Part shown: in pieces, positions 626-60,206 of the stretch
How the letters are laid out: each line of letters starts with the position of its first letter
Position numbering within the stretch: the first letter of the stretch is position 1
Assembly (NCBI GenBank): GCA_024679065.1
Contig: JAGIQG010000004.1
Span: 54,250,001-54,314,000 of the forward strand
Length of the DNA: 64,000 bases
Direction: 5' to 3'
Origin: Sphyrna mokarran
Lineage: Eukaryota
Position numbers and translations under genes: made by a program
Notes under the pieces: model-generated
What the model saw: the letters and a program-made list of their open reading frames with translations, nothing else
Told to the model about the DNA's origin: nothing
The model's database searches: none

Positions 626-1360
626 TCATTTTGAATTTATTTTGAAACAAATAATTAGCTCCAAAACGAACTCTCCTTTAATTACTGGGATAATTTACCT
701 CTGTTGTATCTGTTAAAATCTTAAATGGTTTACTTTAAAGCATCTATAGAATTATTTGAAAATTGGAGCCGGCTAAGCTATTCGGTTCATCGAGCTGCTC
801 CACCTTTATTAGTAAAGATGATTTGATTGTGGCCTTATCTCCACTGTCCTACCACCCACCCATCACCCCACCACTCCAATCCGTCATAATTTTTGACTCC
901 CTCTTCATCAAAAATCTGTTTAACTGAGCCTTGAACATGTTCAATGACCAACCTCCGTGGTTTCTGTAGAAGAGCTACGAAGATCAAAGTCCCTTAAGTA
1001 TGAAATTCCTCTTTATTTCTGCCTCAAACAAGATACTTTTTAAACCGTTTCCCCTCTTTCTCCAGAACATAGATATCTTCCAAATATATTTACGTCTACG
1101 CCAACCAAGGCTAACCCGAGGAGTTGGTTGCCTTTGCGAGGCATTGTTAACTTGGAGATATATTCCATGGAGCTCTATACCGGCTATTATCCTCGGATAA
1201 TATTCCATTACTTTCAATTTGTAAACTGTGGCTCAAATATTCACCTTCAAAGAAGATTAATTTTCACTGCCTTTGGATTGATACAGAGTTATTTGTTGGC
1301 TTACACCAGTATTTTCTTTGCAAAACGATAATGCCTTCTGGTAATAATGGTGTATCTCAC

Positions 1361-1477
1361 CTTTGACAGTACCTCAGTTTAAAATAATTCCCAGCGATGA
1401 CCACGAGCACCATTATTATCAATAAAATAATGCTAAATGTCGAGGCAGCAACAAAAAAATTGTGACTTCAGCAGCAT
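1361..1477 (-). pseudogene. Gene A TM exon (frameshift in a T7 run)
   Basis: Acceptor ttttgcag, donor gtgaga. DAAEVTIF joins FVAASTFSIILLIIMVLVVIAGNYFKLRYCQ only if one T is added at the plus-strand A7 run (1453-1459). Confidence 0.75.
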
Positions 1478-1725
1478 CTGCAAAAGACTATCGAAAATGT
1501 AAGATTCAGGGGTATTAAGTTCAATTCAAACAGCAAAAAAACCCCAGAGACTGATGGGATCATGCAATCATGTAAATCTCTTTTTTTTAATTCAAAGTAA
1601 AATACCATCATGAAACAATTCACAGGTTGAACAATGAATCCTCGTGTAAAAGATGAATTGGTCAAATGTTAAAGTGTTTATCCACGTGTTTGTATCTTAG
1701 TCAAATGACAAATGGGATAACTTTC

Positions 1726-2016
1726 CTGAATTGGATGAATGAACAGTATCTTTCAAGTTATAATTGGAGTTTGAAGAGAAACATGAAACACTTAGTAGCT
1801 GTATTTCGCTCTGCTGCGTGTTGGCACCATATCTTTAAGAGTGCTGAAAACATTTCCACCGTGCTTCGCTCCCAGTTTCAATTTTCGCGTCGTCCTTATA
1901 CCAAGTCACATTGAGATTTCTGGGGTAAAACTTAGTTGTTTTACACAGTAGAGTCGGGGGAGTAGGTGGACGGATTTTGGACTCAACCAAGCTGATTGTC
2001 AAAGGAGTGGGCCGAA
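1726..2016 (-). pseudogene. Gene A decayed C1 exon
   Basis: Reads RPTPLTI...LLCKTTKFYPRNLNVTWYKD, then a deletion/frameshift, then YSY*VFHVSL (second Cys lost, in-frame stop). Acceptor is AA instead of AG and donor is GA instead of GT. Confidence 0.82.
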
Positions 2017-3613
2017 TTTGGGAGGAAAAAGAGCATTTTTTATTGATTGAAATGTTAATTTTTACATTATTTTTATTCAGAACACGAAATTAAGACCGGG
2101 CTATTTAATAGCATGTTTCATTGGAACGTTTTAAAATATTATTAAACGTGAAGCTAGAAATTACCTGGTGTCCTTAATGGAAACATTTTAAAAATTGGTA
2201 ATATAAATGGTCAGCGAGCTAAGGAATGCAGAAAGAAGCTATTGTGGCCATCGTTTCTATGTGAGCTCCATGAAAAATTTAGGCCCACTCCAGTGAACCT
2301 TCTTCTGACCAAAGTTTCCATTTTAAGTATTTATCCAACTTTCCCTTGAGAATTATTATGTACTCGCCTTGCTTCCAGCTAATAACTTTCAAATCATAGA
2401 ATCTGCCGCGCAATACAATTTCTCTTCTCCCCTTTATCCTTTTGGCAATTGGCTTAAATAAATCTGCGAATTCAGGTTAGCGAATTATGTTTGTCTGGCT
2501 TTCGAGTCAAGCTACTTTACAATGATGCAGGAATGCATTTAGCTCAATATTCTGGTTTCTGTTCTGCCACAATAATCCATTTAGCCCCATTGAGATATTT
2601 ATCCAGTTCCCTTTAGAACAGTCAATACATTCTGTTCGCATCAGTTTTCTAAAAATATACCCAACCTCGTACCAATTTTGCCCTCCCTTCAGCTATTTAG
2701 GCATTCCAGTCAGAACAGAAGAGGCTTATATTAGTTCTAATAATTAATTGCAATACTTTCATATACTCTATTCTTTTCCAGACATTTGATCTTCTTTGAC
2801 TCTCCAGAATTTTCGCTAGAAGAGCCGCACGGGCACAAGAGAAACCTCCAGGCCGAGGTTAGAGGAGTTGAGCAAGAGAATGCCTCCGTCTAAGTGATGA
2901 GAGGAACCGTAATAAACAGTGATATTTTAAGTCTGTTTGTAAAAGTCATTGTGCTTTTGAAATCATAACGTTGCTCCAAAAGCAACACTTTACTATCTCG
3001 AGAACAAACTTTCATGCCAATTCTCACTGAATTGTATTGACCTGTCTAACGCTTTTCCGCAGCGGAAATTCGCTACGGTTGATACTTCCTGCAAAATTGT
3101 GGGAACTTGTTCAACAAATATTTGAACAGAAACAACGAGAGGAAATATTTCATCCAAGCATCAGGCCACATCTAGCACGCATCGACTTTGTGTGCATCAA
3201 TACAAACAGAAAATGCTGGAAAATTTCAGCAAGTCTGATAGTATCTGTGGAGAGAGAATAGAGCCAACGTTAAGAGCTCTGATTTAATCTTCCACTGAAG
3301 TTGTAATCACCACTTCACTATCAACTGTTCGGCACCACTCCACAAAGTCAGGTTCTACACATTGCCACTGAGAGAAGAAAATCTTCTCTCCTGTGTTCTG
3401 GAGGGAAATAATATGATTGACCACATTGTGCGGAACACGTGTAGAACGCTTCTCCGTAAGTCGACGGTCTCACTCTTTGAGTATCTTGAGGTTGACGCTG
3501 GATACATAAAAGTGGACAGGTATTCCCTTCCCACACCCTTCTCCATTTCTTTGGTATTTTAGCAAATATTCATTGCACAACTGACACCGGCACCATTAGC
3601 ATCAGGAACTCAC

Positions 3614-3928
3614 CGAACATATGGAGCTCCGAGCCGGTTCCATTCCCAATCATTCTTCCCCCACAGTACACGGAGCAGTAATAGCAACCAGAATCTTTGA
3701 AGCTCGCATTCACAAGATGGAGGACGGCTCTCCCTTTTTTCGAAAGCTTAGATTGTCTGTTGCTCGATTCTTCATCGTCCGAAAACTCGTCCTCATCATA
3801 CCGCCACCAGTGAACCATGATGTCTGATTCCTCTTGGAAGAATGGGAGTGTGCAATAGAAAGTAATATTTGTTCTGCTGACAGCAATTTTAAGTGGCGGG
3901 ATTTGGGCGATTGTGGAATTCCCAACAA
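3614..3928 (-). CDS. Gene A V-set Ig exon (open frame, J-like GNGTGSELHM)
   Basis: Acceptor ctttctgatag, donor gtgagt, 315 nt, phase 1/1. Translation VGNSTIAQIPPLKIAVSRTNITFYCTLPFFQEESDIMVHWW...DSGCYYC...GNGTGSELHMF. Confidence 0.88.
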
Positions 3929-4200
3929 CTATCAGAAAGCCAATATAAGCACAAAAATAAACATCTCAATGTACAGATAAACAAATATAGAAACGAAATT
4001 AAAAAGAACAATAAAGAACCATAAATGGAGATAAATCAATTGATCAAAATCACTGTATAAATATTTGTTCTATCTACTAAATATTAAGGTACCTGTGTAA
4101 GCAATCCCAGGATCAGTATACATGGAAGCAAGTCAGACAATAGAAGGTGAATGAATGAATGCAATCAAGCAAAAGACACCAGGTAGTTCGGACTGAGTGA

Positions 4201-19271: not shown

Positions 19272-20832
19272 TCATAAATATCTTACACCTGCAAACAGTA
19301 TTTAGATTCTCAACTTCTTTCTTTGTCACATTCACTTCAGCATACAATGGGCGTTTGTTTTGTTTAAGTTTTGATGGGTCCTTGGAATCAGCAAGCTGCA
19401 AAGTGGCATATATCAGCTTCTTATCTCCACCTCTTTGTTTAGCCCGTTAAAGTAATATTTAATATCATTGTAAATCCATCGTCCAATCATTATTGAGACA
19501 ATTGACATTTTAACGAAAGACTTATGGAATTTCCTTCCATTAGTTCCAATTTCAGATTGTAATCGGATTTTGGTTTGGCTTCCTTTCCCTTTTCTGCAGC
19601 CCTCCCCCAAATCTTGTTGAAATTCCATTTGAACTTTCATGTAAAATTAATTCTTCTGTTAATATAGCTCATTGAAGAAAACAGATTAATTATTTGACTA
19701 AAATAAAAAAAAGTAATTCCATGCTGCTCTTTAAGGCAGTTGGGAAAGCTGATAGGACACAAGATTAATTTAAGGCCCAATTGTCTGAACATCGATAGTC
19801 GCAGTGCCCTGCTTATCTCACGGAGGAAGGCTCTGGGTCACATTTTTCATTCGCCTTACCGCCATTCCCACTAATCTCGTGATCTCTGGGACTTGAGGCA
19901 AAAATGACGAACTTGTTTGAAATCAGCCGACAGAGCACAGTTGGTAGATTAAACAAGAACCTTCCTATTTCCTGCATCTCAGTGTGGTATTACATAATAT
20001 TGATGCCATTACAGTAAATGACCTAAGATGTACCTGGGAATATACGATGCTCTCCTCCCTTTGTCTGGGGTTTGCCTTTTTCCTGGTGTCAATTTTGACT
20101 GTGGCAGAGCCAGGCTGTTGTCTTGTTTTGTCTGTAAAATAGATATTTTACGCATGTCATTGAAGAATTTCTTGTTTCGTAGTTGGGACAAGCATTATTC
20201 CAGGCAGACCCGAAAAAGAAACGTGGATAATATTGACTCTGATTTTTGTGTAAAACCGATTACGAGCCCGCAGCCTGATTAACATCTCTCCCGATTGCTA
20301 TTTCCAACCAAGTCAGTAAGAGAAATGTCAATTAATAAGGATTTGTTGAAATCTGTCCCATAAAGACAAAACCAATCCCCTCAGATTCTGAACAATTAAT
20401 CAATATGTTGTAATGTATAGTCATATCGTAGAATCCATACAGTGCCATTCGACCTATAGAGTCTGCAACCATCACAATCCCACCCAGGTTCTATCCCCTT
20501 AAATCCACCTAATCCCCGCTAATCCGCTGAAATTAAGAGGTAATTCACTTCACTGCATATCTCTGGAATGTAGGAGGAAAGCTGAGTACCCGGTGGAAAC
20601 CTAAACCAACGTGGGGAGAATATGAATGTACAAACTCCACATAAATAGTTACCCGACTGAACCCGGGTACCTGGCGCTGACCACCTAGTTGACTATCTTT
20701 CACCTCAATCCGTCAGTCCTGCCTGAGAATAGATGGTGTGCTCTTTCTTGTGTTTTGGTTTGGAGGGGCCTTTTTCTTCTCGCAGGCTTGAGTAGCGTAG
20801 GCGTCAATGTTCTCATCTGGCCTTTGTCTAAC
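19272..20832 (-). pseudogene. Three tandem homologous cytoplasmic exons with ITIM/ITSM-like Tyr motifs, all disrupted
   Basis: Exon 20832-20723 (110 nt; AYAT, TIYSQ; GC donor). Exon 20131-20034 (98 nt; LA-ATV, IVYSQ). Exon 19443-19272 (LIYATL, PLYAEV, TV-AGV; acceptor GG instead of AG). Confidence 0.72.
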
Positions 20833-27080: not shown

Positions 27081-30000
27081 GTTTTTTTAAAAAAACACAC
27101 ACTGAGTCTTAAAACTATAAGCAATTTGAACTACACTAAAATATTGAGGTTAGCCCAAAAAAATTTTAATTCTGAATGGTAACAAACCAAATGCAGGTTT
27201 AGGAGCCTTGTGTTCCCAGTTGGTGGGAAAATTGTTTATTTATGACTAATTTTGCATGGGAAAGATGTTGCCTTCCTTCTTAGCAAGAAATCTGGAAGTT
27301 CGAGTATGAGACTTTTAGAATCATTGTTGACTGTCGTAGCTCCAGGCTCACTGTAATCTTGGTGATAAGTGAGTCCTTGGCTGTATTATCCACACTTGCA
27401 TATAGAATCTTGCCTGTCTTGAATCTGTATGTCTATAGTGTTGCCCATCACCCTGGTAGAATGGAATGTTAGAACATCACCTTTGGCAGATGTAGGATGC
27501 AATGAAAAGTGCTTCTGGTAGGATTGCCGTAATCCTATATAATTAAACTGCACTGAAAACATTGCAATTTATACAATGTTTTGCCTTAAAATTGGTTGGT
27601 GCCTCGAGAGAATTGTAAGGATAGTAAAGTAAGAATAGAGCTATCTCTAGTGGGAGTGATTTTAAAAAAAATACTTTAGTATACAGCACCTGACTTTATA
27701 TAGTCCTGCTGATTATCACTTGTTTTGCTGTAGCTTTGACAACCTAAAAGAACTAAACAGTTGGTTATACCTTTTGTGGTTTCCGTCCATCTCTGTCTTC
27801 TCGGCCCCTGTTTCTTATCACCTTTCCACCTGTTCCCCAGTGCCAAATAAAGATTTAAAACTGATCTCCATTTTCAGGAAAGTAACCCTGTGAAATTTCT
27901 TAATCTGTGTCTCCAATCCCTCTATTCTTAGTTATGGAATCTGACCATGGTTCCTGTATCATCTAACCCATAGAAATTAGTTGATTTACAATGTTTATGC
28001 ACAAGGTTCACTAATGTGCTTAGCCAGTTGGCATATCTTATATCACTGCATTGAAAATTGCAGTGGTTAGTACTGCTGTCTGTGCCAGAGACCTACATGT
28101 GATTCCTTGCGTGGGTCACTGTGTGGAGTTTGCACATCGTCGCAATGTGGGTTTCTTCCAGATGATCCAGTTTCCTTCTACATTCTGAAGATGTGCTGGT
28201 AAGGTTGAACATGCTAAATTGCCCCATAGTGTCAGGGGGTTAGAAGGGCTATGAGATAGGTCCTGGGTGGGATTGCAATTGGCCACCTCCTGCACTGTAG
28301 GAATTCTATGACAGCGCAGGTGGTGTCTGTTAGCTAAAATGTTTCCTTGACCCTGTTGGATCTTTTGGGTTGACTAACTGAACTGTACTTCCCTGGGAGC
28401 AGCACAAAAATGAAGCAATTTTTCAGTAATTGCTGTCCATAAAGTATTCTGATTAGCCTAGTTATGTTTTCTCCTTTTTTAAAAGGTAGGATTATATTGT
28501 TGCAGGCAACAGGCTGATCTGTCCCTCTTTTGAAACTAGATAGCATATTCTTGGGTTCTATTAAATAGTTTGAATTTTGCAGAATGGTGGTGCATTGAAG
28601 TTCCCATTATCCTTTGCCACATTATTGGTGATTACAACACGTTTGCTGTTGCTTCAAACAGAACAAATTTTAAAAAGAAAACTGTTAAACAAAAATATTT
28701 GTTTTATTGCAGTTGAATTGATTGGCACCTAACGCTTCATAAGGAATCTCCAAATCTGATCTCAAACCATGGAAACTCAATTTTAAGAACTATCATAAAC
28801 TGACAGTATAAATCTATATGACTTGGTTGATATTGTTTCAAACTTGAGCAAATTTATGACATGCTACTCAAAGAAATAAGATATTTGAAAGCCTTCTTGG
28901 TATGGAAAAAAACACTGATATTAGACTTGTTTCATTGGATAAGTGACCAATTCTCTTGTTTTACTACCTTGGCTTTGTAGATTCTCACCATTATTCTGTA
29001 CTTTAATTGCAATAAATGAAACTGTATGGTTAATGAACAAGTATCAGGAAGCCTTGTGACACAGTGGGCACCTGCTTCTAAGGCAGAAGCTCTGGGTTCA
29101 AGTCTGATCCAGGAGTTGCTTGTCAAGAAAGGTTGGTCAAGGAATGATGCTAAATAAGTTGAGTAACTTGTGAATGCTTAATGTACACCAATGGTAGACA
29201 GTAAAAACAGGAGAAATTTCCATCACATGGTCATCCACGTGATGGAAATTAATTGAAGCCTCTACTATCACTACCCACTTGGGATTGAACATAATGGCAT
29301 ATTATTAGAACAACAGACTCCTTGGAGGGCTAAATAGCTGGTGTCTGTCAGACTGGTACCAATAGCTGGATTAATCCCCAGATTGGAATGGATTCCTTGC
29401 TGTGAAGTCAGAGTGCTGTAGATTAGATCTGCCTTTAGGCAGAGTTGAGGAATGAAATACCTGGGTCTACTTCTATAAAAAGCTCAATTTTGTGTTGTTT
29501 TAAGATTTTCAACTTCTCTCTCTATGTCATGTTTATTTCTGCATACTCTACATGTTTGTCTTGCTGTTTAAATTTTGATGCTTTCTTGAAGTGAGCGAGC
29601 TGCAGAGTGGCGTAAGTCAGCTTGTTATCTCTGCGTTGTTTAGTCTGTGAAAGCAATATGTAATATTTGTTAACTCATCAGCTCATTACTTGAGGCAATC
29701 AGGTTTTTAAAAGTTTTCTCTCATTTCAAGTCACAGTTAATAAGAACACAGCCCATCAAGTTTAGAGCAATTTAGTTCCCTTTTCTCTTATGCTAAAGAA
29801 AAGTGACCATCCAATTTCTTTTTGAAATTATTGGTCTCTGTTTCCCTTTATCCCTGGCAGCCCACAAACTCATCTCCAACCTGTTCTTAATCTCCACCCC
29901 TCTCCCAAGTCCCTTGCCCAAAAACCTCATTCTCATACCACCAGTTAATGGAAACACCACAATGAATCTTTTCTCCAAGGAGAGAAATGCTAGCTTTTCC

Positions 30001-33104: not shown

Positions 33105-33220
33105 TGATGTGGAGTTGCCGGCATTGGACTAGGGTAGACACAGTAAGTAGTCTCACAACACCTCATTAAAGTCCAACAGGTTTACTTGGTAGCAGGAGCT
33201 CGGAGCACAGTGCCTTTAGC
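33105..33220 (-). mobile_element. Penelope-like terminal repeat fragment
   Basis: Reverse complement of 46870-46980, with the hammerhead core partly deleted. Confidence 0.65.
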
Positions 33221-33506: not shown

Positions 33507-36500
33507 TCAACTTCGTTCTTTAAAGATGCAACAAAACAAAAGATTTATACCCTTCAATGAAGCACTATTCACCCGCCGTTTCTGTCTTAACAGTTCAACT
33601 GGGCATAACAAAATAAGAATTTGCGGTGAAATAAGAAAACTTCTTACCAGCTGAAGCTTTAAATTTGAGTCTCGTCAAAAAAATTATCAACAGTACAACA
33701 GCCAATGCGCCACCTGCACATCCCAAAATGAGTGGAAAATGGTTTCCTGAAATAGCGACAAGATCAACAAATGATTGAAATCAGAAAGTTCCGAACACAG
33801 CGAGATTTATACACAATCTTGGGTCTAGCGCGGGAGGACGCGGTGCAATGTTGTCTTTCCCGAAATTGTGTCCATTTACTCTGTGTGGGGACCGATACTT
33901 TTATTTCTATAGGCAGTAGCTATAAAAGGATTATAACGTTGTCCAAACAACAGTAACGCTATTTATGGAGGAAACTAATCTATAAAGGCGCAGGAAATTT
34001 CTCTCTAGACCTGGGGGAATTTGCGGTCAAAGTAAAGGGGTTTATATTTGTGCCACACCAGACAGACGCGCACCGGCTACAAGTAATAGCAAAGCTTTTC
34101 ATTCTTCGGCACTGACAACCAGAGAACACACACTGCAGCTCTTAGTAGGTAACAAGAACAGTTTGCATTTAACATTCTAAAATGCCCAAACGCAGCGTTA
34201 TCAAACACAGTCAAACCACATGAATAATATTTTGACAGCTGGAGGTAGAGTTGAGGGAACGTCGAAAATGAGAGTTGAAAAGGCGGGGATACTCAAGAGC
34301 GAGAGTTGAATTCAGATAGCGGAAGGCATTATGCGGACATAACGATTTTACCTTACATGCAATTCAAATATTCAGGATATAAAAGTGACTACTAAAACTG
34401 ATCATTTTTATATGTACGTTTATTTCACTCGGCAAGAATTTGACGAGAAATAAGCACATAAATTAGAGCACCATAGGAAAGTTAAAGCACAGAAGGAGGC
34501 CAATCGGCTCATCTTGTCCATGTCAGCTCGTGGACACGAGGTGCCCTTTCCAATTTCACCTTCCTGCGTCCGGCCCTTAGCCCTGTGGCTTACTTAAGGT
34601 ACAGATCTATGTACCTTTAAAAAAAGTTTACGGTCTCTGCCTTCACCAACTCAAGCAGCGAATTCCAGACCCCATCTTTCTTTGTGTAAAAAAAGATATT
34701 CCTCGTGTCTTCTCTACATCTTCTGCCACTTATATTAAATCCATGACCCCTGTTTCTAGAATTCTCCGTCAAGGGAAACGATTTCATCCTGTCCATTCCA
34801 CCTTTTCCTCTCATAATTGTGCACACCTCTATCAAGTTACTTATCAGGCTTTTTTCTCAGGAAAATAAATTCAGCCCATCCAATCTCTCTTCATAACAAC
34901 ACATTTCTAGCCCCGGCAATCTCTAGTTTTAGGTCTTTTCAGGAAAATATTCTCTCTCCTCCAGCTACAAACTATCTTGATCATTTTAATTCGTTACTAT
35001 TGATGTGACATTGTAATTAAATAAAGTCTACAATCACCTTGTAAATTCAAGTTTGAACAGCTGCCAGCTACATTAATAATAAATAATACAAATCGGAGTC
35101 TTTACCCCCGCTCGTTTCTGTAAATGTTTCGAATCTTACCTTGCAATACGGTGTAGCTGACGCTGGCGGGCATCTTAAGGGAGATATGAGATGCCAGACA
35201 TGTATAAACGACTCTGTTTTGGAGAGGTAGTGCTTCTTCCAAAGAACTGGTGACCTCAAAAAGACCATCCACTGCCTCATTTCTCACAGTTTGTATTCCG
35301 GCCAGAATTTCCACACCATCTCTGCGCCAGGAGATGTTTAAACCCTCCGGGTAAAATGCAGCCGTTTTGCACTTGAATTTTAGAGAAGTCACTGTATTCT
35401 CTTCAATCCGAACGATTTTCAGTGGTGTTGGAGGAACTATTAACAGGGGGAAGAATCATTTTTGAATTGAAAAGAGTAAATTCTCAATTGCCGAACCTCG
35501 AACGCTTTTATACTCATACTGAGATAATAGTTATCATGCTGTCGCGTTTTTTTAAACTTCGGGCGTGCATTTATTTTATATAATGTTGTACGACGCTCAG
35601 CAAAATTGTCGGACGTTTTGAAAGCGGATCGTTCTCCCATAAATGATTACAATCAGGGAAGAAAGACATGATAGAGTTAAAGCCGGAATTAAAGCCATGA
35701 TGTGCCGGCGTTGGACTGGGGTAAATATAGTAAGAAGTCTCACAAAACCAGGTTATAAATGAAAAATAAATGAATATTTGCCAAATAAACCTGTTGGGCT
35801 TTAACCTGGTGTTGTGTGACTTCTTACAGAATTAAAGCAGCAGATTCTGGCGCGGGATTGTGTTCGGCAGCAGTGACCTGCATTCAGATTCCGGTCCGAA
35901 TGTATCACGGGGAGCACCAAAAAGTCAGCACGAACATTGGGTTCTACTCGGGTTTTTCTGTAAGAATCATTGTAGCACTAAACATTGCGTGTTCGTTTGA
36001 AAAATGACCCACTTCAAATTTTTAATTATTAACCAACACAGCACGGGAAACAGGCCCTTCGGCCCAACGAGCCCGCGCCACCGTAATACCAAATACATTA
36101 TCCTATTTTAATATTCCTATATAATAATATATATATTAATCCTAATTTGGAAAATTTTCACCATAGGGACAATTTGTTACCCAATCAGCCTAAGAGCGAA
36201 TTTTTGTGTTTCCAAACGTATTTTGTTGTACTGATTAATGTTAAGATGCGTGAAATCAAAATACATCTCATTTCTAAATTGGCACCAGACAAGATATAGT
36301 TATATGTATAGATTAAAACCTATGAGTTACCATTGATTACACAACATTTCAATGCCCCTGGTTGAGGTTTCAGATCATGCACCTTTCACCAAAACATCTT
36401 TCTGTAGGCCGGATGCGAATGTTGGAGTATTTTGCAAGCCAGGATAATTTTTGTTAATTATATATCGCTATGCAGATCACAACACCCATGAATTAATTCC

Positions 36501-39152
36501 AGAGATAAAAACAGGTCATGTTAAGTAAACTCAGCTAGTTTGGCTGAGTTTTCATTTCAGATTTCCAGCATCCGCAGTATTTTGCTTTTATTTGACTGTG
36601 CAGTTTGCCCCTCTGCAATTTTACTCAATCTGCTGAGCACATTTTTTCTGGAGAAGATCCTGCTTCGAACAGTCCAAAGTTACAATTTTCTGATGTGAAC
36701 CGCTCTATCTGTCCGCGCTATCAGTCTTCTACCTCAGCTTCCTTCTGTTCATGGGGACTGTACACAGAAGTAATGAATTACATATACCAGGTGTATAGAA
36801 ATGTTGGGTAGTATCCATTCCCCTCTTCACCAGTTGTGTGTGCATCATAGAAAATCCAGTTGGCGTACCGCAGAAGTTCAAACAAGGGCATCGGGCACTT
36901 TAACTGTCCTGAAAAGTCCAGGACCCGGGGTGGAAACCAGCACTGAGGGAAAGATCAAAATCCTCCTTCTCAGTTGATTGTAGGATTGCATTGTGGAAAA
37001 ACCTTGGAATTTCAGACAAGTTACTAATGAACACAACTACAATATATAAACTATTATCCTAGGAACAGGGGCTCATTCAGCCCGACTCATTGTGCTCTGC
37101 CAACCTTGGTGATAGTGATTGGCACTGCTGTCTCACGACGCTAGGGAGCGGAGTTCAATTCCGGCCTCGGGTCGGTGTGGAATTTGCATGTTCTCCCCTT
37201 GTCTGGGTAGGTTTCCCCCCAATGCTCCGGTTTCCTTCCCACTCCAAAGATGTGCTGATTAGATGGGTTGGCCATGCTAAATCGCCCCTTAATGTTAGGT
37301 GGTTTAGCAGGGTAAAGACGTAGGGTTAGGGGGAAGGAGCCTGGGTGTCGATGCAAGTTCGATGGACAAATACTGTAGGTATTCTATGGCTCTGCCTGAT
37401 CTCTAACCTAACTCCATTTGTCCGACTTAATTCGTTCTTAGCAAAAATTGAGCCGTCGCAAATTTAAGGCAATGACGTAAAGAAAGTGTTACATCGGCAA
37501 TTTCGAACAGCCGGCGGAAAAGGAAGCTGATTTCGGAAATATTTGTTGCTGTAGTAGGGGAATTTTCACCTGTATTTATCATGAAGGCACTAAGAGTGAG
37601 GGTTCAGGAAAGATTTGTTGGAGTTAATCAGAGTCAAAGGACTTAGGTTATGTGCAGAGACTGAAGAAGCTACGATCGTTCTCTTTAGGCCTGATAGTTT
37701 TAAGAGGCGGGCGGTGAATTTTGATAAAGTCAGTAAGCAAAAAGTGTTCTGTGACACCAGAGTCGGCAACCAGAAGATGTTTGGCAAAAGAACGCAAGGA
37801 TTCTTTGAGTGGAACGTAATTACAGTCTAGTACCTATTATTGTTATCATATTGTTCAGCTTCAATCGCGAGCAGTGAGTGCAGGGGATCCCGATTCATTT
37901 TCGCTTCCTGGTTAGATCAACTAACTCGGCAGTGAGAGCATTTCGGAAGGGCCCTCAACAAACTGAAATGCCGTGAATAACCGCTGTTACTTTCCTCGAA
38001 ATCTTCTTCTTGCAATTACCTTTGCGGGGCAAGGAGGTGGGGGTGGCGCGGGGGAGGGGAGTGATGTTTACTCCGTGTAGTTCTCACCCCGCACGCCGCC
38101 AATATTCCTTCCTCTTTGGTGTAAATTAAATCTTTGAAGTTTCAAAGAAGGTTTGAGCTGGGAGGTGTTAAGATTGCTTACATTGTTCAATTGTGACGCC
38201 ATTGTGGCGAGAAAGAATCAGACCCTGACATTTCATTACAACATCAATGCAAAATACTGCAGAAGCTGGGCATTTGAAATACAAACGGAAAATATCGAGA
38301 ATGTTCAGAGGTCGGGTAATACCTGTGTAGAGAAACTGAGTTAACGTTTCGGATCATTTCATCATCGACATGAAATGTTAACTTTGTTTTCCTCCACAGA
38401 GAGAACTGACCTGTTGAGGTTATTTCGTGTATTTCCATTGCTTAATTTCAAAATAAAAATATCCACTATACATCGAAGTCAGTGGAAGACAATCCAATGT
38501 TCTCTAAAAATAATTCGTTAAAAGCAGCTTTTCCTCCAATGATAAAAAATCAAATGGCAGATATGGCGCCGAGCTGAAATCCTCCCGTTTACAATTACAC
38601 CTACCGTATACAGTAAGCTGGGTGCCAGTTCCAGTTTCAATAGATTTTTCTGGATATTTTACTTTACAATAATACACTCCGGAATCTGCAAAAGTCACAT
38701 TCAGGAATTCAAACGAACTACTTCCCTTGTTCGTATTAAATCGCTTTCTATTGTCTGGTTCGAGAAAGGATTGTTCTCCACGTCTCCACCAACGAACATC
38801 GGGCATATCTGGAAATAAGGGAAATGTGCAGAGTATGGAAGCATTCGCGCCTCTGTTCACCTTCAAGTATTTAGGGATCTGAACCACTTTGGCCCAAGTT
38901 ACTCTGGCGGCTGTCAGGAAAGAAACAAAGGCGGTGATGTAACAGATAAATAAAAATAACTGAGAGAAGTAAATTATAAAAACAAGCAATCGAATTAGAG
39001 AAGCACAATATCCAATTTTACAGTGCGTAACAGCTGTAGAGTATTTTAAATTAGGACCTGCCGTTGTGAAATCGGCAGGATCTAATAATGAATATACCTG
39101 GCCAAAACACGCCCAGAAGAACCATGTAGTGCACTGTGACTTGTATCCACAT
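33507..39152 (-). CDS. Gene B: intact type I membrane IgSF receptor, leader-V(J-joined)-C1-TM-short tail (SIRP/NKp30/VJC1-like), ~255 aa
   Basis: Four phase-1 GT-AG exons splice in frame: leader 39152-39098, V 38910-38605, C1 35436-35140, TM 33746-33648. A putative terminal exon 33517-33507 adds ERS*. No stops or frameshifts. The last exon is uncertain. Confidence 0.88.
33648..33746 (-). CDS. Gene B transmembrane exon
   Basis: Acceptor ctatttcag, donor gtaaga, 99 nt. Encodes GNHFPLILGCAGGALAVVLLIIFLTRLKFKASA, a hydrophobic helix followed by basic stop-transfer residues. Absent from the ORF track. Confidence 0.88.
34470..34920 (-). mobile_element. CR1 3' fragment in the gene B C1-TM intron
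   Basis: IEVCTIMRG...RGHGFNI...VWNSL. Confidence 0.75.
35140..35436 (-). CDS. Gene B C1-set Ig exon
   Basis: Acceptor ctgttaatag, donor gtaaga, 297 nt. Translation includes VPPTPLKI, FKCKTAAFYPEGLNISW, DGLFEVTSSL and YTCLASHISL, giving the C1 motifs CxxxxFYP and YxCxxxHxSL. Confidence 0.93.
35696..35827. mobile_element. Collapsed Penelope-like inverted repeat in the gene B V-C1 intron
   Basis: gtaagaagtctcacaaaaccaggtta and taacctggtgttgtgtgacttcttac form inverted arms. Confidence 0.7.
37108..37390 (+). mobile_element. HE1-type V-SINE (gene B intron)
   Basis: Same head and V domain as 11316-11620. Confidence 0.85.
38605..38910 (-). CDS. Gene B V-set Ig exon with germline J-like G strand
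   Basis: Acceptor cctgacag, donor gtaggt, 306 nt. Translation includes KVVQIP, ASILC, VRWW, DSGVYYC and TGTGTQLTVY. Confidence 0.93.
39098..39152 (-). CDS. Gene B leader (signal peptide) exon
   Basis: Encodes MWIQVTVHYMVLLGVFWP plus one G, followed by donor gtata. 55 nt, phase 1, separated from the V exon by a 187-nt intron. Confidence 0.85.
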
Positions 39153-39390: not shown

Positions 39391-39729
39391 AGTAGAAGCT
39401 GACCTCTTAACTGCCGCTGGAAGACTATCACTTAAAGATCAATTTTTTTGCAGCCACTTTCGGAACACTTCGTCCCCGACTTTCTTTGTCAATACCAGAC
39501 TTTGATTCTTCACTTAATCCTGAAAATAAAGATGCCCGCTGCGGACGGCCCTTCAGCACTTCATCTGAGATATTCTTCTTCCTGTAGGAGCATAAAGTCT
39601 GAAAATGTTTAGACCTGAGTACTTTGAACTGGGTGCGATCGGACCTCAAGCAACTTCCAGCCATCTGACTTGTAGCAGAATCACTGGAATAACCATTCAG
39701 ATTAACAATCTCCTTATATTAGTTGCACT

Positions 39730-39818
39730 CCACTCACTTGATGAAGGAGCAGCGCTCTGAAAGCTCATGATACCAAATAAACCTGCTGGATTGAACCTGG
39801 TGTTGTGAGACTTATTAC
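39730..39818 (+). mobile_element. Solo Penelope-like terminal repeat with a degenerate hammerhead (C3>U)
   Basis: CAC UUGAUGA A GGAGC-AGC-GCUCU GAAA GCUC, followed by the same ccaaataaacc...aacctggtgttgtgagactt tail seen at 46897-46943. Confidence 0.7.
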
Positions 39819-40499
39819 GTTAATTCCAAAGTTGTTGAGGCCAAGTTTAACTCACGAAGCCGGACATAAAATTTTAGCCCTATTTCTACATGTTTTCATT
39901 TTACAAACCAGCAGACCTGATGCGCAACTACTGACTGTCGTGGGAATTGCAATAGCAAAATACCCCCACGGATACCAGAAACCTGGAAAAAGAAAGCCAG
40001 AAAGCGCTGTAAACATCTCAGCAGACTTGGCAGTATCTGCAGAGGGAGCAAACCAGTTAAAATTTCGAGTCGAATATAGCTTTATTCGGAAGGAAGGAAT
40101 TTTTGCCGTGTGTTGGATGATTCCCGCAGATGGAATTGCCAGGAGAAAAAAATTAAATCGACCTTTGTCAAGTTGGTTGCAAAGGCGAAGGATGCCTCAC
40201 TAAAAATAAGGCCAATTATTCGCGATATTCAGTTTGTGATGGGTTGCAGTTTTCAAATCCGCTCTTTTGTCGATTTCATTGATCTGAATCAGGGGAGAAA
40301 ATCAGCCTGGAATCCTGTTCCTCGCTGCCGCCCGTTGCAGCTGCAGGCTCGGTAAGAACAGGATGAGACTGTAATTAACTTCCACCTGTATACCCGAAAC
40401 CTCTGGTTCTTTTGTCAATCACCTTAAATCTGTCTTGTATTTCGCGATGTTTGTGTTACTGGGAACCCTTCTTATGTTGTCAAAATTGTTAGTAACTTG

Positions 40500-40895
40500 A
40501 ACAAGATAATGACGGGGCTAGATAGGGTAGAGGTAGAGAAATTCTTCTGGCTTAGAAAGGATAGCAGAACTAGATGGCACAGCTTCAAAATAAGGGGGGG
40601 GGGAGATGCAGTTTAAATCGAAGTTGAGGAGGAACTTCTTCACTCAAAGGGTCGTGAATCTCTGGAATTCTTTGCCCAATGAAGTGGTGGCGGCTACCTC
40701 GCTGAATATACTTAAGTCACAAGTAGATAGATTTCTGATAGACAAGGGAATTAAGAGTAATGGGGAGAAAGAGGGAAAGTGGAACTGATCTTCTTCAGAT
40801 CACCCAAGTCAGATCAGCAATGATCTTATTAAATGGCGGGGCAGGCTTGAAGGGCTAGATGATCTACTCCTTCTCCTATTTCTTATGTTCTTTAA
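40500..40895 (+). mobile_element. CR1 3' fragment
   Basis: RRNFFTQRVVNLWNSLP followed by a 3' UTR. Confidence 0.85.
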
Positions 40896-43800
40896 GTTCA
40901 CTATGCAGCCTCGTTTTAACCTTCTGGACTCTAAGGAGAGCGACTATATCTTCTTCGGTCTCTCTACTTAATCCCTGTCCCCAACATTGGCAATTCTTCA
41001 ACAAATCTGCATCCTCTCTAAATACCCGACATCTTTCAGACTTGAACAGAATTGCCCAACTCAGGCTGAACTGATGTCTTATGAAGGTTTAGAGTAGCTT
41101 TTTTTACTGCATTCTTCTCTCTTTTAAAGAAGCCAAATATTCTCTATGTTCTCAAAAGCTGCCACATTTTTCTGAAATCTTCAAATATCGCATATTCATC
41201 CCGAGATCTTTATTTTCATTGAAATCTCCTTTCTCTCTGCAATCAGTAAAATGTGATTATCTCAGTTTCTTCTCACAGTTCTACTTTTACGAAGGGTAGC
41301 AAAGATGGCATAACTTTAATAACTATCAATGTAAGTGAGCTGATATCTGAGCTAATTAGATGCGGGTTAGCCCTACAATTACTTCTGTTATTTGATAACA
41401 GTGAATGCAAATTCAATCTTGCCGTGAGACATATGATAGCGAAGTGGAATAGATAGTATTTATATTTACTCCGGACTGTTCTAAAGGAGGGAACTTGCGG
41501 TAGCAACTTGATTAGTGAAGAATAATTGTCCTCAACTGTCCTCCCTTACTGAATCCAATATTTGCCCAACGCTTCACTCCTATAGAGGAACCTGTTATCC
41601 CGCGGGGATTTACAAGGAACAACTAAAATAAAAAAAAATCATGATGGCCAACACTGGAACAGCTCCAGAACGCCAAGTTCAAGAATGTCATAATTGTTTG
41701 TGATCTTTCTCGTGACCGCTCCTGAACTTTTCAAAGGGAAGAAAGCGGCGGCACGGTGACAGAGTGCCTCTATACCTAACCCACCGCGGCCTCACAGCGC
41801 CAGCCTTGGGTGACTGTGTGAAGTTTGCACATTCTCCTGGTGCCTGCGCGGGTTTCCTCCAGGTGCTCCAGTTTCCTCTCACAGTTCAAAGTTTACGTGG
41901 ACTGGCCCTTTGTGCCCCAAGTATGTAACTTAGGGTTATTGTGTGGGGTTACAGAGATGGGAAGGAAGGATGTTTGGTAAACTGCTCTGACGGAAATTCG
42001 GTGTCGACCTGATGGGCAAAATGGCCTTCTACCGGACTGCAGGGATTCTAAAAATGCTGCATGACATTTTCCATTAGAAGCGCTTGCAGTGGTGAGTAAA
42101 CCACTATGTCACAGACCAATAATTTCTCATTAAACAGAAGATCTAGAATCTTGAAAACAAAATTGATGAATATTGGAAACATGAAATTAAATATTAAATA
42201 TTCGAAATAGAATAAAGAGATCCCGGCTTCTGTGGAAAAAGTCTGGAGTCACGGAGAGACTGATATACTCCTGAAAATTGAATCAAATGTAATGTGAGAT
42301 GACGTTGTCCATGTAATCTGAAATGTCATTGGAACAAGACTCTCGCTCTTCAACTCTGTGAGAAGGGCAGTGAGTAGGAGAATCGAAGGAGGGAAGTGGT
42401 AAATGATAGGGGGTGAGAGGAAAGCAGCTAATGGGAAGGTCAGGCCAGAGAAACGGCGAGCGGGAAGTTTGGGAGGGGAAAGTGGCGGATAGGAGTTTCA
42501 GCAAGTGGGAAGTTTAAGAGAGCTGGTGAGCAGATGGGTCGGGAAAGGCGACAAATGATGAAAGTGGTGGTGAGCAGAAGCTTTGAGAAAGCAGCAAGCA
42601 TGAGAAAAGTAATGGTGTCAATAAGTTATGTGGAGTTAACAAGTTAGTTTGAGTATTTTTTTGCCAGCTAGGTTTAAGGCAGCGCATAGAATCTTTCAAT
42701 CAGCTTTATATAACAATACTGAGTCTATTAGAGAGAGATGGCATTTGGATTAAATTGATGATGGTAAACAAACGTGTCAATCTTAGCTCATTGGTAGTAT
42801 TCCAATTCCTGACTTGCGTCACTGTCTGTGGAGTTTTCACGTTCTCCCTGTGTCTCCGTGTATTTCCTGCGGGTGCTCCCGTTTCCTGTCACAGTCCAGA
42901 GATATTCAGCTTAGGTGCATTGACCATGCTAAGTTCTTCCTCAGTGTACCCAAATAGGCACCGAGTGTGCTGACAAGGGGATTTTCACAGTAGTTTGATT
43001 GCAGTGTTAATGTAAGACTATTGTGACACTAATAAATAAACTTTAACACTTTCTCCATGTGCCAAAGATGATGGGCTCTATTCCCACTCCAATAAGGTGA
43101 AAACAAATTCTAGCAGCACTGATGAAGAATTGCGTGACAGATCATGCTGTATTTTGCAAAAGACGTTAGGACAAACCTCCCTCATTCTCCAGCGGTGAAT
43201 GTGAATAATCCTAACAGACAATTGGAATAAGAGCAGATGTGTTCTCCTTTCATGCTATATTTATCACTCGTCGCTTAAAAATAAATGGCCGGAATTTTTT
43301 GGCCCCTAGTCCTGCAAGTGAAGGCGGAAAATGTGGCGTTCAGTCAAATGCCATTAATTGCAGCAAAACCAGAGAATGCCGCTGGCATGAACGCCGGAAA
43401 ATATCTCATATTTATCTCATATTGTTTGGAGGACTCTGCACAAATTGTTGTCTATTTACAAAAACAGTGACTGCATTTTGAAATGTTAAAACGTTCTGGG
43501 GCGTTTGTGTAGCTTGCATACAAGGTTTGTATAGACTTTCTTTCTTTTCTTCAATGCCAGTCGCACCTGCGGATTCCCTGATCCGCTTCAGCGAACAAAG
43601 ATTTGGCTCAGTGCCGAATTTTCTTTCCTTTCAGGTCGAGAACAACCGGAAAATTATGATCACACAGCTTCTATATGTGATGCATGTTTTTCCAATGGCC
43701 TTGATGTGCCAAACAAACTCCACCAACTTGACTGGAGTTGTTGTAAGTAAACGGTTGGGCATTTTGCTGCACTGAGAAGGATTAGATCAGATATATCTGT

Positions 43801-44224
43801 ACTACTGAAAAGGGATATGTTATCGAAGCTTTTTCTCTTGTACTGATCAGATATAATGCAAGAATATCCTATTTCAAACTAATAAAAAAAATGCAGCAGG
43901 AGATTGCTTTATAAGTCAACTCATATTGACTAAAATATTGCCCCGAAGAAAACAACTGGGAACTGTAGATGCTGCATGCTTCCAAACAATTCAGAAAGAT
44001 GCAGAATATGTTTGTTTTGTTTGCAGAGAACCGGCTCCTAAATTTGAATGGAGGTTATAAGTAGCATGTGTAAAACAGCCATTTTACTAACTTGACTAAT
44101 TATTTTAATTGGTTGTTAATATATAAAGCACAGCCATAATTGTTCAGCAAGTACTGCCAAGTCACAAAATCACATCTAACAGTAGATGTTTGGTTTAGAT
44201 TTTGCAAACATGGCCTGTTGACTA

Positions 44225-45140
44225 TAGAGACCATAGGATATGGGAACAGAATTAGGCCATTCAGTCTATCAAGTCTGCTCTATCATTTGATCATGCCGGA
44301 TATGTTTAACAACCCCATTCTCCCACCTTTCCCCGCAACTTTTGATCCCATTAACAATCAAGAATTTATCTTCTCTGTCTTAAATAAACTCAATGAACTG
44401 GCCTCCACACTTTCTGTGACAATTAATTCCACAGATTCACCATCCTCTGACTGAAGAAATTCCTCCTCAACTATGTTCTAAATGATTCTCCCTTTATTCT
44501 GAGGCTGTGCCTTTGGATCCTAATCTTTCTTACTAATGGAAATATCTTCTCTATATCCATCGTATCCAGGCCTTTCAGTATTCTATACGTTTCAATGAGA
44601 TTCCCCTTCAACCTTCTAAACTTTATTGAGCACAGAACAGAGTGCTCAAATGCTCCTCATACATCAAGCCTTTCATTCCTGGGATCATCCTCATGAACCT
44701 CCTCTGGACCATCTCCAAGGTTAACATATCCATCCTTAGATACCGGACCCAAAATTGCTCACAGTATTTCCAATGTGGCCTGACCAGAGTCTTATAAAGC
44801 CCCAGCAGTGCATCCCTGCTTTTGTATTCCAGTCCTCTTGAAATGAATGCTAACATTACATTTGCCTTCCTAATTATTAACTAACCTGCAAGTTAATCTT
44901 ATGAGAATCCCGAACTAGGATTCCCAAGACCCCTTGCGCTTCTGATTTCTGAATACTTTCCCCATTTAGGAAATAGTCTATGCCGCTATTCTTTCTACCA
45001 AGGTGCATAACCTCACACTTTTCTACATTGCATTCCGTTTGCCATTTCTTTGTCTACCCTCCTAGCCTAAGCAAGTCTCTCTGTCTTTTCAATACTACGT
45101 GTATCTCCACCTAAACTTGCATCATCTGCAAATGTTGCCA
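44225..45140 (-). mobile_element. CR1 3' fragment
   Basis: MLAFISRGLEYKSR...LYKTLVRPH. Confidence 0.85.
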
Positions 45141-45950
45141 CAATGTTATTATTCATTATAGCTGAAAATGAAGCAAGCTGTACGCAAAGCTAGTTCTGGA
45201 ATGTTCTCAGAACAACAGCGATATTTCTCTAAAATTAACTATATTTAACATTCAAGCTGATTTCAAGATTTTTGGTTCGTTTTTCAGTTTTCAGAATCAG
45301 GACGCTGGGGATTGCAAAACATATTTACAAATATTTTGTTGAGAGATGCGAAGTTTCAAATTAACGTCATAAATTATTCTTCATCTCAACTTTGAATGAG
45401 TAACACAGGCATTGTGCATTGTACGACATTTCAGATCGTAAGATGGGAGCAGCGTCTAACCACAAATGTTTCCGTTATACCATGAGCAGAATCGCTGTGC
45501 AGTTCTTGCAATTTCCCATTAGCTCTAGTTATCAGTGCACGTTGTGGTATATAATTAGTTGACTGAAAATATCAGCTATAAGAAATGGCATTTTATATAG
45601 ATAAGTTGCAAAGGTTCTCACTCGAGCAACAGCAACCGCGCATTACAATCTGAAATCTAAAATTAACGTCTTTGTAGTCATCAACAGAATTGAACATATT
45701 ATAAATAGGAAGAACTTACAAAGGATAAGAAATGGGAATAAGAGTTAAAGTCACACATCAAGACCACCCACACAGTCACACACGTAGAACAAGTGGTATT
45801 TATAATGTACCTTCAACGTAGTAAATTATCACAAGAACATTATCAAACACGTTTTAATACTGAGCAATGTTGGTGACTAGCAGGATTTAAAGGAAGTAAG
45901 AAGTCTTACAATACCAGGTTAAATTCGAATAAGTTTATTTATAGTAAATC

Positions 45951-45986
45951 CACAAACTTTCAGAAACGCAGTTCCTTCGTCAGGTG
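45951..45986 (-). ncRNA. Minimal type I hammerhead ribozyme motif (intact catalytic core)
   Basis: Minus strand reads CAC CUGACGA AGGAAC-UGC-GUUUCU GAAA GUUU GUG: CUGANGA core, 6-bp stem II, GAAA, and a CAC/GUG stem I. Confidence 0.65.
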
Positions 45987-46851
45987 TGTGGAAAGTTCTG
46001 ATCAGCGAAGGACATATAAAGGCACAGACAGTTTACAGAATACTGATTAGAATTGAATTTTTACAGCTAATCTGCTATTCAAGTCTTAAAGATGCAGGCA
46101 ATGTGAGTGGAGATAGCATTAGACATAGATTAAAGAGATCGGTATTGTCTCCAGACTGGACAGTAAGTGACAGGTCGTTCGAAATGAATCCAAGATCCTC
46201 ATGTGTGCGGAACTCGGCCATGCATTTCTGCTCAGTGACTCTTCACTGTTGTGTGTCATGAAGGCCTCGTTGAAAGATGCTTACCTAAAGATCGGAGGCC
46301 AAATGCCTATGACCGCCGAAGTGTCGCCAACTGGAAGGGAACCATCTTACCTGGTGATTGTCGAGGATGTTCGTTCATCCGATGTAGGTCGTCAGACAAT
46401 GTTGTCAACGATGAATGAACATCGCTTGACAATGACCAGGCAAGACTGTTTACTTCTTGTTGGTGAACACTTCAGCAGTCATGGGCATTCGGTCTCTGAT
46501 CTTCGGGTAAGCGGTCTCCAAGGTGGCCTTCATGACACACAATAATGCAGAGTCACTGAGCAGAGACTGATGGCCGAGTTCCATACATATAAGGACGGCC
46601 TCAACTCGGATCCTGAGTTCATGTCGCATTATCTATAACCCCCATGACTTACCTGGGCTTGTGAATCTCACTTACTGTCCTGTCTGGAGACAATACATAT
46701 CTTTTTAACCTATGCCTAATGTTATCTCCACTCACATCGTCAGCATCTTTAATCTTGAATAGTAGATTAGCTGTAAAGACTTGCATTCTAGTAAATATTC
46801 TGTAATCTGTGTGTGCCTTCATGTATCCTTCTCTGATCAGAACTCTCCATA

Positions 46852-56900: not shown

Positions 56901-57000
56901 ATGATATTGGAATAGTTTAGGTTAGAGGGTCCACTGGCTGGCGCAACATCGAGGGCCGAAGGGCCTGTACTGCGCTGTAATGTTCTATGTTCTATGTTCT
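53919..57000 (+). mobile_element. Young 5'-truncated CR1 LINE: ORF1 esterase C-terminus plus near-complete ORF2 (APE + RT), inactivated
   Basis: ORF1 SGNH-type end LHLNRRGTNILGG. APE motifs NARSIRNK, ISETW, YRPP, GDFK, SDH. RT motifs YRPVSLTS, DFSKAFD, GVPQGSVLGP, FADD. (TTCTATG)n tail ends at 57000. Lesions near 54500, 54730, 55288 and 55800. Confidence 0.95.
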
Positions 57001-58012: not shown

Positions 58013-58323
58013 TGGCATGGTGGCATAGTGGTTCGCGCTACTGCTCCACAGTGCCAGAGACCTGGGTTCAATTCCAGCCCTGGATCACTGTTGGTGTGGT
58101 GTTTACACATTTCCCTGTGTCTGCGTGGCTTTCCTCTGAGTGCTCCGGTTTCCTCCCAAGTCTAAAGATATGCGGATTATGTTAATTGGCCTTGCTAAAT
58201 TGTCCTTTACTTAGTTCGGGGGATTAGCAGAGTAACGATGTGGGGTTATGGAGATCGGTAGGATTGTGTTGGTGCAGGCTCAATGGGCCAAATAGTCTTC
58301 TTCTCCACTGTTCAGATTCTATG
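58013..58323 (+). mobile_element. HE1-type V-SINE; further copies at ~5080-5250(-), 20430-20690(-), 24415-24635(+), 28060-28310(+), 31830-32170(-), 41745-42050(+), 42790-43045(+)
   Basis: ggcatggtggcatagtggtt...gggttcaattcc...tctgcgtgg.tttcctc..agtgctccggtttcctccca. Confidence 0.85.
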
Positions 58324-58834
58324 ACAAAGTGGTTTGATTGAGAGGTTAACTTATTGTTTCTTTTGACAGATAGTGATTTGCACATTGAGCATTTCCAGTA
58401 TGTTCTCTTTTACATTACATACAATTGCACTGAGTCTACAGCACAGACGATTCGGCCCAATTGATATATGCTGGCATTTATGCATCTCTCCCTCTATTTA
58501 TCCCGACCAACATCTTTCCTTCTGCCTCATCTACGTTTCAGGCTTCTTTCTTCAATGTTCTACACCATTCCACTGAATGATCCCTATATTTAATATGTTC
58601 CATATTCTTACCACTTACCATGTGTAGAAGCTACTCATGAATTCTCGACTGGATATATTTATATCTGTTTTATGTTTCTATCCTCAGGTTTCGGATTCCC
58701 TCATAAGTGGACTCATTTTCTCTACATCAAATCTATTAACGCTGTTCCTAATTTCAATAACCTCGATCGGGTCTCCCTTTAGCTTCCATTTTTTCACTCA
58801 TATACAACGATTCAAATGTTAGCCATTATTCAGT

Positions 58835-59190
58835 TAGTAACACTCACTCCTGCCTGAGAAAGTTGTGTTTTCAAGCCGTACTCCGCGATCTGGCCACCAA
58901 GAATTTAAATTGACATACCAGTGCAGTACTGAGCGAGTGCTGCATTGTCCGACGTGCTGTCTCCACAAGTCAACGTTATACCTAGGCCCCAGCTACCTTC
59001 GTGGGTAACCATTAAATACGTTATGCCACTAGTTGGTGAAGAACAGAAGAGTTATCCCCAGTGCCCTGATCAACTTCATCACTCAATCAACATCTCAAAA
59101 AATAAGGTTTTGGGGCGTTTGTTGTGTACATGTTTCCTTAACACGCAATGGCCACACTTCAGAATTTGTCTGCAAATGGCTATGCCAAAT
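58835..59190 (+). mobile_element. DeuSINE remnant at the position equivalent to 300-625
   Basis: ccagtgcagtactgagcgagtgctgcattgtc...gaagaacagaagagttatccccagtgccctg. Confidence 0.65.
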
Positions 59191-59500
59191 TCGGATTAAA
59201 AAAAATACGAATCCCTCCCAGTAATCGGGACCGTTGGTATTTTACTCGTTAATAATTGAAGAAAAATATCTAGCAGCTCTTTCTAGCGAAATCTTACGTA
59301 CCTCAACAAAACACTTCTTTTCCTAAGAACAGGGAACATCCTGCAAGTGTCTTCGCAACACTGCTAACCCAGATTAACAGAGGAGGTCGCTGTTTCCTGA
59401 AAATTGTTGCTGGGCTGGAGGAATAATTGTCGGAATTATGCACCGGATGTTGCTCCGGAATGTCTCATTATTCTCAATGTGTAATTTGTAGTCCAAATGC

Positions 59501-60206
59501 TCACCTTCAAATAACATTCATTTTAATGTGAATTTGCAATCTTATTATAAAGGTTTGAATTGAAAGGCGATGTGCGCACTGGTGATAAACATTGTCTTGC
59601 CTTTGGCACTGTGACAGCTTGAAATACTGCCCAAGGATGACTATCAGCACCATTATTACTAATAGACTCACTCAATACCGAGCACTATTAGAGGATAATG
59701 ACATTGTGAGCGCCGCAAACGAAGAACAGCGGAGACATAAGACCGTTAATATCATTACATCCAGCGAGAATACCAGGAATACACTGGATCAGAACTTATT
59801 AGTGTAATGACCATTCAATATAAATACAGAGTTATTAAAAAATCAAGTTACTGCCTGTTGAAACAGTTCACATTCGGACTAATGCTTCAAAATGTACTAA
59901 AAGAATACAACAAATTCAAATGCTAATATGGTTCTCAAAATAATTACTGGATTATGTAACAGAACAAATGAACAAGAGTTTCCGAAAAAGAAGTGAACAT
60001 TTGTAATTTACAAATTTGGATCTGAACAGAAAGAGGAGCCCACTTCTCCGCGTTAATGCCGCATCTTCATACATTCCGACCGTCCTTCACTATTTATTTG
60101 TGTTGACCCCAGGTTCAATTTTCATGCTGTTTTTCCAGGAAAGTCGATGAGGAGGATGGACAGAATTTACACTCCATCCAGTCAATCCTCGGATGAATGG
60201 GGCGAA
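59501..60206 (-). pseudogene. Gene D: decayed paralog of gene A (C1 remnant, TM, last exon)
   Basis: Colinear with 1200-2140 at an offset of about 58.2 kb. TM reads LLVIMVLIVILGQYFKLSQCQ with a GC donor, the last exon begins G TGA at 59504, and a C1 remnant with deletions and stops starts at 60206. No V exon seen in the window. Confidence 0.78.

Follow-up and report, generated by a model that had tools for sequence, protein, structure and literature searches.

The window analysed here, a 64,000-nucleotide stretch of the 2.77-Gb genome of the shark Sphyrna mokarran (contig C993:54250001-54314000), appears to be one ~60-kb tandem-duplication unit of an immunoglobulin (Ig)-type receptor gene cluster in which every copy of the family is damaged, and the family itself likely comprises germline paired immune receptors whose inhibitory and activating members are kept matched by gene conversion. 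Read from sequence, this interpretation is given a probability of about 0.75. A genome-wide search with the V exon of one of the window's genes, locus B, returned 38 matches, every one on the window's contig, and with two further V loci the total comes to 40 V exons or more, in a family whose genes have a leader-VJ-C1-transmembrane (TM) structure. They lie in blocks at 54.19-55.03 Mb and 62.4-63.3 Mb, with a single gene at 50.24 Mb; the counts are lower bounds, 54.07-55.16 Mb having been read gap-free and the second block in selected stretches. The gap-free block held 24 V and 28 C1 profile matches, fragments counted, and in it the duplicated unit recurs every 59-94 kb, each time with a V1 inhibitory gene, a V2 inhibitory gene or its remnant, and a remnant of the type of locus D described below.

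Predicted inhibitory and activating classes

The genes of the family would encode germline, non-rearranging VJ-C1-TM proteins. Eleven genes of the V1 and V2 types having both V and C1 were tallied by signalling class, and in all of the models (11/11) there is a single C1. Five are intact genes on the minus strand, with models of 314-384 aa, an uncharged TM and two to four motifs of the immunoreceptor tyrosine-based inhibitory motif (ITIM) type; four are intact genes on the plus strand with an Arg in the TM (Arg-TM), with models of 252-253 aa and a stop a few residues past the TM; two (B and g54230) have damaged tails. The second block adds two intact Arg-TM genes, and an ITIM exon of the family is also present at contig 63.147 Mb. 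Arg lies at the outer TM edge in 6/6 short-tailed models. The two classes are oppositely oriented and stand about 0.4-0.8 Mb apart. Other sharks have the same exons, in the ITIM form in horn shark (P0154) and in the Arg form in catshark (P0001). With five intact ITIM and four intact Arg-TM genes beside the window, the initial annotation's proposal of a paired-receptor family evolving by birth and death is supported. Neither of the findings that it named as refuting came up, since A and B belong to one family and all five intact ITIM paralogs share the ectodomain of B.

ITIM tails recruit SHP phosphatases, and an Arg at the outer TM edge pairs with FcR-gamma/zeta. By this biology of ITIMs and their activating (ITAM) counterparts, the ITIM class would damp the leukocyte by drawing in SHP-1/2-type phosphatases, and the Arg-TM class would pair with an adaptor of the FcR-gamma/CD3-zeta type and activate it. 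The genome carries two adaptor genes of the zeta family, both with Asp in the TM; one of them we take to resemble CD3-zeta and the other FcR-gamma. In the available part of a 2014 survey, neither genes of the leukocyte receptor complex (LRC) type nor FcR-gamma were found in sharks (PMC4016189).

Matched V domains and probable gene conversion

V domains cluster by type and not by signalling class, V1 and V2 being 50-56% identical to each other. Identity of V domains across the classes is 95% for g54413/g54903, 97% for g54516/g54877, 95% for g54516/g55007 and 89% for g54475/g55030. Introns compared across the classes are 63-79% identical in V1 and unalignable in V2, and identity in the V and C1 exons rises to 85-98% over windows of 150 bases. 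Tree conflict was examined by approximately unbiased (AU) tests on DNA of seven V1 genes. With the V exon, a tree that joins both activating V1 genes in one clade is rejected (p=0.0014), whereas the alternative to that clade is rejected by the intron after C1 (p=1e-62) and by the C1 exon (p=0.007). In g55030 the synonymous distance (dS) of the V exon is 0.098 to inhibitory B and g54475 and 0.224 to its activating neighbour g54903, derived V residues are common to g55030 and the inhibitory block, and over 8 kb the flanks match g54903 at 83-85% identity. Because the V-exon and intron trees conflict, these data, together with the near-identical V domains, point to gene conversion between the classes.

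V exons would thus be copied from one class to the other, so that the activating copy stays matched to the inhibitory one, a likely parallel to receptor pairs with which mammals oppose mimicry by pathogens. In the part of PMC5112662 available, Xenopus ceacam pairs are described as oppositely oriented, with exon-limited conversion of the ligand-binding domain, and Xenopus and mammalian CEACAM pairs appear to work like the shark family in both respects. By analogy, opposite orientation would allow conversion in the shark, and pathogens that engage the inhibitory receptor would most likely meet a decoy in the activating copy. The likeness has its limits: CEACAMs have different Ig domains, their activators carry their own ITAM and their conversion leaves almost no synonymous change, unlike the shark family.

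A number of observations weigh against the reading of matched, conversion-maintained receptors. The intron before C1 did not separate the competing trees (p=0.057). Cross-class dS is 0.10-0.32 and not near zero, so the conversions would be old or partial. The likeness of g54413 and g54903 can also be explained as ancestral sequence under purifying selection, and catshark P0001 groups with these two genes. An estimate of dN/dS on the V loops, proposed in the initial annotation, gave no significant value above 1: positive selection was not significant (V1 pN/pS 0.72, loops 0.56, V2 0.14), nor did the fastest pairs reach significance (Fisher p 0.35-0.52), and the value of 1.64 for the V1 BC loop comes from few sites. 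Notable, as a post hoc contrast, are the ~24 nonsynonymous and 4 synonymous differences between g54413 and B, against 5 and 12 between g54413 and g54903 (p=0.0003). Since Arg near the TM start is also found in some ITIM-tailed members (P0045, g54721), a TM Arg is no proof of activation.

A rival reading is that the receptors are paired but their V domains are alike by common descent and by purifying selection toward one self ligand, conversion being slight or absent and a decoy role lacking. The closest cross-class pairs, with dN/dS of 0.04-0.12 at dS 0.17-0.32, would fit such an origin, as would the catshark ortholog of the g54413/g54903 type. Pure shared ancestry is nevertheless rather unlikely in view of the AU tree conflict and of g55030, whose V exon shares synonymous sites as well as derived residues with the inhibitory block, yet whose flanks match g54903.

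Genes at contig 54.708 and 54.770 Mb have identical V proteins and differing C1 and TM exons; either V was converted recently or the assembly holds a duplicate.

Damaged copies in the window

The features of the window are as follows (window positions).

4093..4131, minus strand: A leader exon; start codon lost, 1-nt deletion
3614..3928, minus strand: A VJ exon; open; Pfam V-set; 68% identical to horn shark P0031
1740..2016, minus strand: A C1 exon; broken, with acceptor lost, 9/7/9-nt deletions and a stop; Pfam C1-set E 4e-6
1241..1476, minus strand: A TM exon; Arg-TM (activating-type) class, frameshift after the Arg
20723..20832, minus strand: dead tail, first exon; 1-nt deletion, donor GT changed to GC
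20034..20131, minus strand: dead tail, middle exon; 7 nt deleted, frameshift
19300..19443, minus strand: dead tail, last exon; two Tyr motifs, acceptor lost, 4-nt deletion takes the stop
39098..39152, minus strand: B leader exon; intact
38605..38910, minus strand: B VJ exon; intact; Pfam V-set E 5e-12; germline-joined G-x-G-T J-like motif
35140..35436, minus strand: B C1 exon; intact, two Cys; Pfam C1-set E 2e-6
33648..33746, minus strand: B TM exon; uncharged, inhibitory class
33573..33598, minus strand: B possible cryptic 26-nt exon; AG..GT piece that would bring the ITIM exon back into frame (301 aa)
33200..33206, minus strand: B deletion junction; ~4.2 kb missing relative to paralog g54348, a 44-nt linker exon included
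31102..31475, minus strand: B decayed tail exons, two; sequence remains
29522..29644, minus strand: B terminal tail exon; intact, two ITIM-type motifs (LTYATL, VEYAEI)
39450..46000, no strand: 'C'; non-coding, lies upstream in the ~60-kb duplicated unit
60065..60206, minus strand: D C1 remnant (profile match 60143-60065, E 8e-6); V exon deleted near 60996
59507..59712, minus strand: D TM exon; A's Arg-TM type, decayed, with stop, frameshift and acceptor lost

In B the frames of the leader, V, C1 and TM exons are open, with canonical AG/GT splice ends. Its paralogs continue from the TM into a 44-nt phase 1-to-0 linker exon and then one to three Tyr-motif exons. The ITIM exon of B is still open and 95% identical to that of g54348; spliced straight to it, the TM exon would be out of frame, with a stop two codons past the TM exon and a product of 253 aa. 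Without the linker exon, B would yield a tailless protein or none. As it has an inhibitory-class TM and an ITIM exon of its own, B is evidently a damaged inhibitory gene and not a native short-tailed one, and on the same two features the candidate of a native short-tailed or activating gene was rejected. The initial annotation had counted one clearly intact gene in the window. None is fully intact: the ectodomain and TM of B are, its tail is damaged, and that tail, with the intact two-ITIM exon at 29644-29522 and the two decayed exons at 31.1-31.5 kb, had been overlooked.

Locus A, whose C1 lesions were scored against a paralogous copy at contig 54.533 Mb, is an Arg-TM pseudogene, and the splice donor motif found in the 3' untranslated region of intact Arg-TM genes also follows its TM exon. 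The block holds five D-type remnants and one further A-like pseudogene, so that with A all seven copies of A's Arg-TM lineage are dead here; horn shark retains an ortholog model of this lineage (P0031). A and B carry the sole V domains in the window and these are ~33-37% identical, so the very divergent V domains reported initially are real for A and B, though D has no V exon. The identity of the A V domain to its horn shark ortholog argues that this divergence is an old subfamily split and not recent fast turnover.

The dead multi-ITIM tail (19.3-20.8 kb, minus strand) was confirmed. Its three damaged exons, over which frameshifts and splice losses are spread, align exon by exon to the intact paralog g54516, and it is the remnant of a V2-type inhibitory gene with its V, C1 and TM gone. 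At least three and possibly four same-strand paralogs had been proposed; A, B and D are present, all on the minus strand, and the possible fourth, C, was rejected. At E<=1, none of the DNA profiles for V, C1, TM and tail exons matched C (39.4-45.8 kb), its longest open reading frame (ORF) is broken in 4/4 duplicates, and it is without any family exon, being the upstream part of the duplicated unit. Every family copy inside the window is thus judged to be damaged, and the window taken alone is a graveyard unit.

The damage could be an assembly error that hides an intact inhibitory receptor in B, or B could be saved by the cryptic 26-nt exon. It counts for the first version that the B deletion is known from the assembly alone and that its ITIM exon remains open and so close to that of g54348; the second has in its favour that a frame-restoring AG..GT piece is there at all, though its acceptor AG is missing in 2/4 V1 paralogs and its use in B is speculative. 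Either version is unlikely. The deletion point (~33,202), compared with four paralogs, is a clean junction with short microhomology, and the lesions are deletions of several bases and splice losses common to duplicates. An independent short-read contig spanning window 1100-2141 with 0 differences repeats the lesions of the A C1 and TM exons exactly, and no indel is listed for the dead tail in the short-read comparison, in a run that may be of the same animal.

Repeats were also observed in the window. A 480-bp retroelement 3' end (23414-23897) recurs dozens of times within the two receptor blocks, the copies being 92-98% identical; this family is young and active-looking and may drive rearrangement. 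Reverse-transcriptase ORF fragments, presumably LINE-like, occur on both strands at 51059-56920 and 6067-7101 (longest 375 aa). An imperfect palindrome of ~1 kb at 45895-46944 is 74% self-complementary, and its end motif recurs near the B deletion junction.

Relationship to known receptor families

Among solved structures (PDB), the best sequence matches of the ectodomain were Ig chains, UrIg2 and SIRP (SIRPa, SIRPg). KIR and Siglec-5/14 are likewise paired receptors. The analogy to SIRP, NITR and KIR drawn in the initial annotation is apt for the mode of working and does not extend to membership, the domain tests for SIRP and NITR having failed.

SIRPs resemble the shark family in a V and C1-set ectodomain and in having ITIM and charged-TM members. 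The activating SIRP member uses a central TM Lys for DAP12, whereas Arg in the shark family lies at the outer TM edge. The human SIRP region would, we assume, be marked by SEP-domain and PI31 genes; the shark family adjoins AMFR, and candidate SEP and PI31 matches lie on other contigs (C668/C1326). The SIRP ectodomain is V-C1-C1 in the available text of PMC12975943, against one C1 in the shark family, and membership was ruled out by this single C1 and by short-tailed models without the central Lys.

The NITRs of teleost and holostean fishes share with the shark family a germline VJ domain, clustering, many inhibitory and few Arg-TM members, and pseudogenes. The shark V exon carries a G-x-G-T/S motif, the F of FxGxGT being absent. 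The six-Cys I domain that defines NITRs in the part available of bioRxiv 10.1101/2021.06.11.448072 differs from the shark second domain, in which two Cys are invariant and which is scored as a C1-set domain, and on this ground NITR membership was ruled out.

The non-rearranging genes UrIg/UrIg2, PRARP, tetrapod VJC1 and NKp30/NCR3 share a VJ-C1 N-terminus with the shark family. UrIg/UrIg2 are marked by several C1 domains behind the VJ and by an Fc-like dimer, and UrIg2, the second-best PDB profile match, has many C domains, whereas the shark family has one C1 and then the TM; NKp30/NCR3 has a single VJ domain, a TM Arg and MHC linkage (MHC, major histocompatibility complex), and in the shark family C1 follows every V. 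The domain layout thus fits neither group. An amphibian VJ-C1-TM protein (P0146) was a distant match, and two amphibian-type VJ-C1 proteins fall outside the family on long branches. As far as the available portions of PMC12227049 and PMC10751288 go, UrIg2 sits with Ig and T-cell receptor genes and UrIg and NCR3 are MHC-linked, and in their accounts of shark and tetrapod VJ-C1 genes these portions mention no ITIM, pairing or such cluster. An MHC II beta search gave no match anywhere in the genome and is hence uninformative on MHC linkage of the cluster.

That the family consists of ligands or co-signalling molecules like B7, butyrophilin or B7H6, the short-tailed members being plain tailless ligands, is suggested by relatives auto-named 'NCR3 ligand 1-like' and 'tapasin-related' and by weak Pfam matches to CD80-like and butyrophilin C-domains, but is very improbable, since the best Pfam match is C1-set, the best solved-structure matches are those given above, and ITIM exons that recur, like a TM Arg that is conserved, are typical of receptors.

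Age, naming and genomic surroundings

Relatives that bear automatic SIRPa-like, tapasin-related or NCR3LG1-like (B7H6-like) names were found in horn shark, catshark, white shark, bamboo shark, sevengill, rays and chimaera, those of the B subfamily in cartilaginous fish being 58-75% identical. Horn shark XP_067906043, catshark XP_038662025 and chimaera XP_007902825 belong to the same family and have the same exon-level structure; such RefSeq/UniRef entries are predicted models under borrowed names. In the tree most genes are closer to a relative in another species than to any in this genome, and the subfamilies are therefore old. At least two more subfamilies have an ITIM form and an Arg form as sisters. 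A and B fall within one family, as the initial annotation supposed, in a clade whose support is weak (56/53) against four long outgroups; nine near-duplicate genes were kept outside the tree.

The left neighbour of the block is AMFR (gp78), at contig 54.09-54.14 Mb on the minus strand and 35 kb from the first tail exon. Pfam searches of 150 of the 984 flank ORFs yielded only the AMFR G2BR, two long interspersed element (LINE) endonucleases and one weak GST-like match, and identified no right-flank gene. AMFR and family members lie on identically sized contigs in six species, chimaera included, which suggests, from contig sizes without gene order, that the AMFR-linked locus predates the shark-chimaera split. 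A literature search, with subscription journals mostly outside its coverage, found no description of the cluster as a paired family, and the cluster is provisionally regarded as undescribed. Only tentatively can a broader view be offered, of a paired activating and inhibitory receptor complex older than the shark-chimaera split, anchored by AMFR outside the SIRP, NITR and LRC-type families, with ongoing cross-class V conversion and made from the VJ-C1 module of antigen receptors in its unsplit form.

Further loci were noted on the way. A lone family member at contig 50.237-50.247 Mb, 4 Mb off the cluster, is rich in Cys in its juxtamembrane part, and sevengill shark has an ortholog of it. Orphan Tyr-motif tail exons occur at contig 54.811-54.813 Mb and an orphan TM exon at 54.826 Mb, with no V or C1 nearby. 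On contig C1548 (81.0-81.9 Mb), ~27 near-identical C1-type exons at ~30-kb spacing are probably an Ig gene cluster.

Significance

A defined set of candidates with matched on/off pairs is supplied for the germline receptors by which shark leukocytes would hold activation and inhibition in balance. The matched pairs, the conversion signal and the AMFR anchor are new here, and the decoy strategy maintained by conversion would be extended to the oldest jawed lineage. If the likeness of the second adaptor to FcR-gamma holds, sharks would possess an adaptor not found in the available part of the 2014 survey (PMC4016189). If the broader view of the AMFR-anchored complex is true, cartilaginous fish would have in it their main missing system of germline natural killer/myeloid receptors, and it would serve as a living model for how recognition worked before RAG.

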